A stretch of 64,000 bases of DNA, taken from assembly GCF_003018115.1 (NCBI RefSeq), contig NZ_CP027457.1, one strand, 5' to 3'. The position numbers were made by a program, and so were the translations under genes. The stretch is from Escherichia coli (GTDB lineage Bacteria; Pseudomonadota; Gammaproteobacteria; Enterobacterales; Enterobacteriaceae). Below, in pieces: positions 23,381-24,051 of the stretch. The notes below the pieces were generated by a model. That model saw nothing but the letters and a program-made list of their open reading frames with translations, was not told where the DNA came from and did no database searches. Position 1 is the first letter of the stretch. Every line of letters begins with the position of its first letter.

Positions 23381-24051
23381 TTTGCGCACTCCTGACGTTT
23401 AGCAACATATGCGGCTTGCCCTGAACACCGGGCACCACTGTATTGATGCTCATTTTCCATAGCCATTCCCTTTTGTTCATTACATCCATGTCAGTCTGAG
23501 ACAGGCTTGAATCCTGTCAGCAAAGTATAAAACCTTACTTGCCTATGAATATCTACTGACTTTTCAGGAAAAAAGTCATGATTTGATAAAAATCATCAAA
23601 CTCAAAAAAAAACCGCTAGTATATTCTGAATATTCCGAATAGTTACGTAGATGAAAATACTTGTCACCGCTGCTACTTAATTCCGGTGGGAAATTATTTA
23701 TTTCCGCATAATCAGCCATGTATCATTTGAAACAATTAGTTTGTAAATAATATAAATTGATAACATATCAAATACATCAAAAATACCATTCACAGGCATT
23801 ATTAATATAGACCTCAATATAGCAACATCAAATTCCAATTAGTAATAAGATATGCTTTTAAATTGCATGCAAATAATTTTAAATGAGCGTTTTTTGATAC
23901 TTTAGAGTGTTTCCTACCCTTTAATATCACTGTGTAGAGTTGATATCACTACAACAGAAACATGCATGTCATTTTTTTACTTCTTTTTTACTACAGAAAA
24001 ATTTATCTATTTTTCTAAACATCAGTGAAATACTCATAAAAGGTAACTATT

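Follow-up and report, generated by a model that had tools for sequence, protein, structure and literature searches.

The control region of iraD, which encodes a RpoS-stabilizing anti-adaptor of the gp25/TssE-like fold family, has been dissected in Escherichia coli K-12 (Merrikh 2009, Park 2017, Sass 2021/2022), where it spans 672 bp and presents two transcription start sites, at positions -417 (P1) and -137 (P2) from the ATG, and a proposed DnaA box at -81 (bioRxiv 10.1101/2021.05.20.444958). Both promoters are modulated by guanosine tetraphosphate (ppGpp)/SspA and by DnaA-ATP in K-12, and CsrA bound at four GGA sites of the leader blocks translation of the leader peptide gene idlP (ORF27) and, solely because the two genes are translationally coupled, that of iraD as well (Park 2017, PMC5574718). 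The same K-12 spacer is listed, as "4554354_526 yjiC(-)/iraD(+)", among the 78 promoter islands of Panyukov and Ozoline (PMC3661553 Table 1); it was scored as bound by H-NS in the chromatin immunoprecipitation (ChIP) data of both Kahramanoglou (MG1655) and Oshima (W3110), with "K" as its entry in the H column, and it falls within a GIST genomic island, with adjoining genes called foreign by Nakamura (two) and Lawrence (one) (PMC3661553). Here we analyze the corresponding 671-bp region between the divergent genes iraD and yjiC in a 64,000-nucleotide stretch of E. coli DNA (contig NZ_CP027457.1 of assembly GCF_003018115.1), hereafter termed the window. This region very probably serves the iraD and yjiC transcription units as a divergent control region that is compound and rich in AT, and in which the key K-12 elements are conserved base for base. 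For K-12, the literature already covers the AT-rich composition, the binding of H-NS, the flagging as foreign, the promoters of iraD and the joint induction of yjiC and iraD, and the additions made here are modest, comprising a feature map for this strain, a two-haplotype structure, the restriction of the DUF2686 family to Escherichia, the polymorphism of yjiC and the prediction of a GNAT fold for its product. The main finding hence matters little, but some of the secondary results may help researchers working on RpoS control and on orphan genes.

The iraD/yjiC intergenic region corresponds exactly to positions 23381-24051 of the window, in the annotated gene order iadA, hypT, iraD(-), yjiC(+), uxuR(-), uxuB, uxuA, and the 2.2 kb around it (22900-25100) match E. 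coli O169:H41 strain 2014EL-1345-2 with 100% identity and K-12-type genomes with 97.3%. Its GC content is 31.9% (68.1% AT over 671 bp), and values are also low in yjiC (39.5%) and in the yjiC-uxuR spacer (32.9%), as compared with 48.4% in iraD, 51.4% in hypT, 53.5% in uxuR, 51-57% in the flanking genes and 47.6% in the whole window; the mean for the E. coli genome is about 50.8%. An earlier note on this DNA had described the locus as markedly richer in AT than its core flanks, and these figures agree with that description, as does the GC content at third codon positions (GC3), which is 32.5% in yjiC versus 51-66% in iraD, hypT, iadA, uxuR, uxuB, uxuA and gntP, indicating a compositional bias in codon choice and not in amino-acid make-up alone. 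The composition is uneven along the region, with 47.4% GC in the P2 leader (23381-23517), 30.0% in the P1 leader (23518-23797) and 25.6% in the distal 254 bp on the yjiC side (23798-24051), and a single unbroken AT-rich stretch of about 1.8 kb (23245-25046, 63.5% AT) runs from the interior of the iraD 5' end to the uxuR stop codon. Among the 32 intergenic regions of at least 60 bp in the window, the iraD/yjiC spacer has the third-lowest GC content (median 41.8%) and is the third in length (median 203 bp), but, because the window itself contains many AT-rich islands, 31.9% GC over 671 bp is no more extreme than roughly the 5th percentile of sliding windows taken from it.

The earlier note had taken the whole of these ~670 bp as the upstream region of yjiC and had placed the iraD promoter within them. 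The extent is exact and both P1 and P2 do lie there, but about 417 of the 671 bp are transcribed iraD leader with three translated small open reading frames (ORFs), which leaves only some 254 bp for P1-upstream elements and for the putative yjiC promoter that this distal segment, judging from the layout, must hold. The correspondence with K-12 is otherwise close (Table 1). The P1 and P2 hexamers, both start sites, the five GGA motifs and DnaA box -81 are those of K-12, the distance between the two starts (280 nt) matches the published value, and a consensus scan independently recovers the TTGATG-16-TATATT pair of P1 at a position that fits the published start. Between the start of P2 and the ATG of iraD there are exactly five GGA motifs (-134, -107, -89, -78 and -12), the fifth of which (23390-23392 here) overlaps the Shine-Dalgarno (SD) sequence of iraD and has been reported as non-binding, while BS1 is preceded by 3 nt in P2 transcripts (PMC5574718). 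All the features associated with CsrA-idlP coupling are present, namely an intact idlP, the overlap of its stop codon with the iraD start codon (ATGA) and GGA motifs at the idlP SD sequence and start codon, together with the K-12 P1 and P2 hexamers. The other two small ORFs are also conserved; ORF47'-'lacZ and ORF23'-'lacZ fusions are expressed in K-12, and mutation of the start codons of ORF23 and ORF47 leaves iraD expression unaffected (Park 2017, PMC5574718). For box -81, DnaA binding by electrophoretic mobility shift assay and a genetic effect have both been reported (Sass et al., bioRxiv 10.1101/2021.05.20.444958). Apart from a spacer of 671 instead of 672 bp, there is no difference in kind between this region and that of K-12.

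Two further observations concern the small ORFs. For the 33-residue form of YtiC in the Pfam model, the initiating ATG would be at 23799-23797 and would overlap the published P1 start (23797), so that only the 22-codon ytiC starting at 23766 would be translatable from P1 mRNA. Inside ytiD, overlapping GAATATTC palindromes (GTATATTCTGAATATTCCGAATA; 23619-23641) encode SEYSEY and lie 100-125 nt upstream of the P2 start; 9 bp of this element are deleted in E. albertii, and it is retained in the yjiC-less haplotype described below. These palindromes could be a regulator binding site. Other than them, a repeat search of the locus returned only short, chance-level repeats, and an Rfam search (E <= 1, 22500-25500) identified no known RNA family, the only match being a sub-threshold, chance one to a small nucleolar RNA. 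On its other side, yjiC converges with uxuR on a hairpin that is probably a bidirectional terminator (the RNA fold of 24880-25025 has -31.3 kcal/mol and z = -3.6), and yjiC, which has no partner gene on its strand, is monocistronic between P1 and this terminator.

The 526-bp promoter island of K-12 can be mapped onto an AT-rich core of the region if the island is assumed to abut the yjiC start codon, and the 27.6% GC of this core matches the composition of promoter islands as described by Shavkunov, Panyukov and Ozoline, with which the locus also shares H-NS binding of the orthologous spacer and linkage to predicted-foreign genes. It departs from them in one respect, since promoter islands are mostly described as transcriptionally near-silent and the iraD/yjiC one contains two well-mapped productive promoters. 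H-NS has been said to inhibit iraD expression, according to the summary of Battesti 2012 given in PMC6064147, and that same account extends the inhibition to iraM, a second anti-adaptor gene that, in common with iraD, shows strong induction by azidothymidine (AZT) without LexA; iraM, however, responds to PhoPQ and Mg starvation, whereas iraD has a partner gene diverging from it and a long leader that contains small ORFs and is subject to CsrA coupling. In K-12, iraD is transcribed from P1 and P2, with ytiC, ytiD and idlP carried on the 417-nt P1 leader. It seems reasonable to postulate that H-NS, together with StpA, polymerizes across the AT-rich DNA at 23518-24051 and continues into yjiC, with its 39.5% GC. 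Such a filament would damp P1 and the yjiC promoter jointly, while P2, at the normal-GC edge of the region, may be the source of basal transcription. Four more published H-NS-bound promoter islands occur elsewhere in the window (37188-40797 and 62461-63982), at fimE/fimA, fimB/fimE, nanC/fimB and yjgL, and they coincide with the lowest-GC intergenic regions and genes of the window.

Evidence for a common response of the two divergent units comes from a 2024 RNA-seq study of AZT-treated K-12, in which ytiC (260-fold, the most strongly induced gene of K-12), ytiD (33-fold), idlP (18-fold), iraD (14-fold) and yjiC (11-fold) were all among the top 25 genes that AZT induces independently of LexA, with a partial dependence on SspA (2.7- to 6.3-fold) for all five. 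Transcripts begun at P2 do not include ytiC and ytiD, which are located upstream of it, so that the induction of both must come from P1, and the distance from P1 to the yjiC start codon is only 254 bp. Joint damping by H-NS would account for the parallel rise of the two divergent units upon replication stress. In a similar vein, RNA-polymerase inhibitors induce yjiC in Shigella flexneri alongside virulence-plasmid genes and fimB/fimE, a set that the authors of that study call horizontally acquired. A control region shared by iraD and yjiC is thus well supported, and its mechanism may be a single H-NS filament laid over both promoters. The divergent co-regulation proposed in the earlier note is in line with the AZT data, and its suggestion of silencing by nucleoid proteins, for which it pointed to H-NS ChIP data, accords with the published K-12 and W3110 profiles, with the inhibition of iraD summarized in PMC6064147 and with the Shigella induction.

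The comparison with other genomes reveals that the locus exists in two forms. A yjiC gene (at least 80% coverage) was detected in 4,881 of 5,426 complete E. coli genomes (90%), with no match in 531, and a defined yjiC-less haplotype, in which iraD is represented by an allele about 78% identical and located 413 bp from uxuR, accounts for 512 genomes (9.4%). When the window is aligned to two yjiC-less genomes (L003 and L004), homology of about 77% ends at 23644 and resumes at 25023, and some 150 bp replace the intervening block. The yjiC-less haplotype retains the idlP, CsrA-site and P2 part of the leader, which is conserved in all haplotypes, including that of E. albertii; its spacer has 35.6% GC, and a hairpin of different sequence is found at the equivalent place. 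About 9% of E. coli therefore carry a diverged iraD allele and are devoid of yjiC, ytiC and P1 as well as of most of ytiD, so that the regulation of IraD established in K-12 may not transfer to these strains. The same two genomes also present a ptsP/dhaL-type phosphotransferase system (PTS) cluster, or a remnant thereof, directly downstream of iraD (L003, 3103-3474; L004, 541-2922). This cluster or remnant is on the hypT side of iraD, lying in L003 between hypT and iraD, and both sides of iraD are hence variable. The accessory-like character that the earlier note had ascribed to the locus is apparent in these counts, and the entire iraD-yjiC segment, enclosed by the core genes hypT and uxuR, forms a polymorphic cassette of accessory-like character.

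The product of yjiC matches Pfam DUF2686 over its full length (507.5 bits versus a cut-off of 25, residues 1-276), and this family, composed of YjiC and its paralogue YjfZ, appears from these searches to be found only in Escherichia. A phmmer search of 1.84 billion representative proteins returned only YjiC/YjfZ fragments and one repetitive false positive, and a word-index search with a YjfZ fragment yielded fragments only. YjiC had no tblastn match in phages and none in any true plasmid, the plasmid matches being limited to mislabelled chromosome-sized records; PHROGs and PADLOC gave nothing meaningful, PADLOC having no family for either YjiC or IraD. A scan of GTDB species genomes identified E. 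albertii and one "Collinsella" contig, and no true relative outside Escherichia. This 1.3-kb contig of a metagenome-assembled genome (L014, JAIJJM010000835.1) is an Escherichia yjfZ locus, 95.6% identical to K-12, and hence a bin contamination. YjfZ itself, previously published as a signature protein specific to E. coli/Shigella, is 38% identical to YjiC over the full length, shares with it 70 invariant alignment columns and the predicted fold, and is likewise preceded by AT-rich DNA (31% GC), but its locus, between rplI and ytfB, lacks an iraD-like divergent partner.

Within Escherichia, yjiC stands out as an unusually polymorphic gene in a conserved frame. Already in this strain YjiC differs by 7.6% from the K-12 protein, as against 0-1.5% for the neighboring proteins, and the protein divergence between YjiC alleles reaches 37% while their flanks are 99-100% identical. 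In E. albertii and two further Escherichia lineages, the slot between iraD and uxuR is likewise filled by divergent alleles (62-68% identity), and yjiC is therefore old within the genus; in these comparisons IadA, UxuR, UxuB and UxuA are 96-100% identical and IraD 76-96%. The ratio of nonsynonymous to synonymous divergence (dN/dS) is 0.28-0.59 for yjiC, as against 0.18-0.29 in iraD and 0.00-0.12 in the core flanks. It remains below 1 for yjiC in every comparison and is lowest in the C-terminal part (0.12-0.32), which indicates that the gene is constrained rather than dead, even if its first 45 codons reach about 1.0 against E. coli L010 (WTUQ01000002). In this last genome, the dS of yjiC (0.44) is about ten times that of the flanks (0.04-0.07) and the divergence is limited to approximately 23850-24850, a pattern characteristic of the import of an old allele through recombination. 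The L010 genome also lacks some 450 bp of hypT (window ~22450-22900), and no hypT is called there.

The ancient horizontal acquisition proposed in the earlier note is made plausible by the shared slot in E. albertii, yet it is unproven, since neither a donor nor a relative was found outside Escherichia; no integrase, insertion sequence or tRNA is annotated at the locus boundaries. GC3 of yjiC is 30-36% across E. albertii and the divergent Escherichia lineages, with no sign of amelioration. With no identifiable donor, ancient acquisition is inseparable from evolution in place under AT-biased mutation and weak constraint.

The AlphaFold2 model of YjiC (mean predicted local distance difference test score, pLDDT, 56.8) derives from an alignment of 6 sequences, and confidence is limited to residues ~140-276; this C-terminal part follows the strand-helix order of GNAT proteins (beta1-alpha1-alpha2-beta2-beta3-beta4-alpha3-beta5-alpha4-beta6), as does the model of YjfZ. 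The most conserved segment of the family, T-V-x-G-V-x-N-x-x-G-F-x-x-A-A-L-L-N-A, falls at the beta4-alpha3 junction, so that N200-S-S-G203-F-A205 of YjiC sits at the position of the acyl-CoA motif (Q/R-x-x-G-x-G/A), to which it fits imperfectly, with N in place of Q/R; N200, G203 and F204 are invariant in DUF2686, and the last motif position is I in YjfZ. YjiC differs from the GNAT superfamily in ~60-100 extra, poorly modelled N-terminal residues. On the strength of these models, YjiC is probably an acyl-CoA-dependent acyltransferase, which provides DUF2686 with a testable biochemical hypothesis, and yjiC would be a lineage-restricted, weakly constrained gene encoding a GNAT-fold protein. The only yjiC phenotype that we located in the literature is the loss of biofilm formation upon transposon insertion in one atypical enteropathogenic E. 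coli (aEPEC) strain, in a single, uncomplemented mutant. A more far-reaching interpretation, to which we lend little credence, would see in YjiC/YjfZ a rapidly diversifying, Escherichia-only branch of GNAT enzymes, with yjiC wired to the IraD/RpoS replication-stress response via the H-NS-covered divergent region, and would attribute the divergent alleles and the yjiC-less haplotype to balancing or diversifying selection on the modified substrate, and not to xenogene decay. The variable substrate could then be, for instance, a biofilm-related, envelope or competitor-derived molecule.

Several observations weigh against this combination of a compound, H-NS-covered control region and a GNAT-fold product. 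The evidence on H-NS occupancy and on regulatory genetics derives from the K-12 orthologue and not from the present strain, and in the literature we found no report of yjiC itself being derepressed in an hns mutant. The 10-bp high-affinity H-NS motif, TCGATAAATT, is not enriched (1.5/kb here versus 1.8/kb in the window); with a single one-mismatch site (24000-24009) and a density below that of the window, it was discarded as evidence. Pairs of sigma-70-like hexamers are not enriched in 22900-25100 either (6 versus 7.9 +/- 2.7 in dinucleotide shuffles), so the case rests on base composition and published experiments. Regarding DnaA, the literature is in conflict, for a ChIP-seq study detected no in vivo association upstream of iraD and doubted its membership of the regulon (PMC11317965), contrary to Sass et al. 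As for the fold, the models behind the GNAT call have mean pLDDT values of 55-57, derive from 6-7-sequence alignments and are confident only in the C-terminal half, and a sequence-level link to GNAT proteins was rejected: at E <= 1 DUF2686 is the sole Pfam match of YjiC, phmmer against the PDB retrieves no GNAT, and hhalign of YjiC against YjgM, the window's own GNAT, gives a probability of 0.1%.

The origin of the AT-richness admits other explanations. It may have arisen in place, with a weakly constrained yjiC driven by AT-biased mutation to a low-GC equilibrium and H-NS binding following composition, an alternative that is possible, if somewhat doubtful. The confinement of the family to Escherichia in all the searches above, the common slot and uniform GC3 in every lineage, the weak constraint on yjiC and the low GC content upstream of iraD in the yjiC-less haplotype are all congruent with it. 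It is harder to reconcile with the foreign calls made on flanking genes by published compositional methods (PMC3661553) and with the imported allele of L010, which reveals that the gene moves between lineages; the predicted GNAT fold also argues against de novo birth, because it implies that yjiC had an acyltransferase as its ancestor, and YjiC shows no detectable relationship to any GNAT of Escherichia. Alternatively, the AT-richness could mainly reflect the functional needs of iraD regulation (two promoters, UP-like DNA, a long unstructured leader and small ORFs), silencing being a side effect. The density of experimentally defined elements in the leader, the retention of the idlP/CsrA/P2 part in all haplotypes and the persistence of AT-rich upstream DNA without yjiC fit this explanation, but the best-conserved part, the P2 leader, has a normal GC content and the extreme AT values belong to the distal 254 bp and to the P1 leader, which is poorly conserved; the neutrality of the ORF23 and ORF47 start-codon mutations and the extension of low GC through the entire yjiC coding sequence and its 3' spacer likewise make it unlikely.

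A different set of alternatives concerns yjiC itself. Were it a decaying or non-functional ORF, its divergence would reflect relaxed selection toward loss, and the upper dN/dS values, the first 45 codons against L010, the absence of the gene from 9-10% of genomes and the existence of alleles that are truncated or carry in-frame deletions could be read in this manner. The frame is, however, full-length and intact in 90% of the 5,426 genomes and in E. albertii, purifying selection is strongest precisely in the confidently modelled C-terminal GNAT core, the 70 invariant columns persist between paralogues of 38% identity and the aEPEC insertion mutant is biofilm-negative, all of which renders decay quite improbable. 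The notion that YjiC belongs with GNAT toxins such as TacT/AtaT/KacT and is kept off by H-NS as harmful is hardly credible: siderophore acyltransferases, acyl-homoserine lactone (AHL) synthases, AAC(6') and Nat enzymes obtain fold-match scores equal to those of toxins, with no subfamily singled out; there is no adjacent antitoxin gene, the neighboring small ORFs being on the opposite strand and part of the iraD leader; YjiC, with 276 aa, is ~100 residues longer than these toxins (~175 aa); and neither PADLOC nor Pfam returned a toxin match. For want of a partner gene and of subfamily specificity in the fold search, the toxin-antitoxin reading of yjiC was rejected.

Table 1. Features of the iraD/yjiC locus (positions in the window)
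Feature	Position	Strand	Basis and remarks
iraD	22988-23380	-	130 aa; RefSeq annotation of the 100%-identical record; NCBIfam IraD equivalog, 302 bits; Pfam GPW_gp25
idlP (ORF27)	23377-23460	-	Leader peptide, 27 codons; annotated; intact translation
Putative DnaA box "-81" TTTTCCATA	23453-23461	+	Pattern scan; sequence and position as in the box mutated by Sass et al.
CsrA GGA motifs	23456-23514	-	BS1 23512-23514, BS2 23485-23487, BS3 23467-23469, BS4 23456-23458 (presumed numbering of individual motifs)
iraD promoter P2	23517-23529	-	-10 TATACT 23524-23529 (presumed assignment); start 23517 (-137)
AT-rich core	23526-24051		27.6% GC; presumed counterpart of the published 526-bp yjiC/iraD promoter island
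ytiD (ORF47)	23576-23719	-	Annotated; intact translation; carried by P1 transcripts only
Haplotype-specific block	23645-25022		ytiD 5' part, ytiC, P1, yjiC and terminator; blastn versus L003 and L004
ytiC (ORF23; 22 codons here)	23698-23766	-	Annotated; intact translation; Pfam YtiC, E = 1.7e-14; P1 transcripts only
iraD promoter P1	23797-23831	-	-35 TTGATG 23826-23831, 16-bp spacer, -10 TATATT 23804-23809; start 23797 (-417)
yjiC	24052-24882	+	276 aa; Pfam DUF2686
Hairpin GCGCAAGG-N9-CCTTGCGC	24983-25010		Between convergent yjiC and uxuR; RNA fold; probable bidirectional terminator

Beyond this locus, most of the window (2474-63982) is 99.7-99.9% identical to the O169:H41 record; positions 1-2473 do not align to it, an IS66 element being present at that place in this closest record, and the window therefore derives from a distinct though closely related strain. 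Two other segments have a deviant composition. The segment at 43897-48208, beside a tRNA-Leu, contains a 2,037-bp hypothetical gene of 32.8% GC, a gene for a phosphorothioated-DNA-binding restriction endonuclease and fragments of HNH and sialate-esterase genes, and looks like a small tRNA-associated island. Another compositionally foreign block, at 8805-10907, harbors a pentapeptide-repeat protein gene (34.7% GC) with AT-rich spacers on either side. Finally, the pepA-holC spacer (353 bp, 54.7% GC) includes a ~96-bp tandem repeat of ~93% identity (55182-55477) that is probably an element of the repetitive extragenic palindrome/bacterial interspersed mosaic element (REP/BIME) type.

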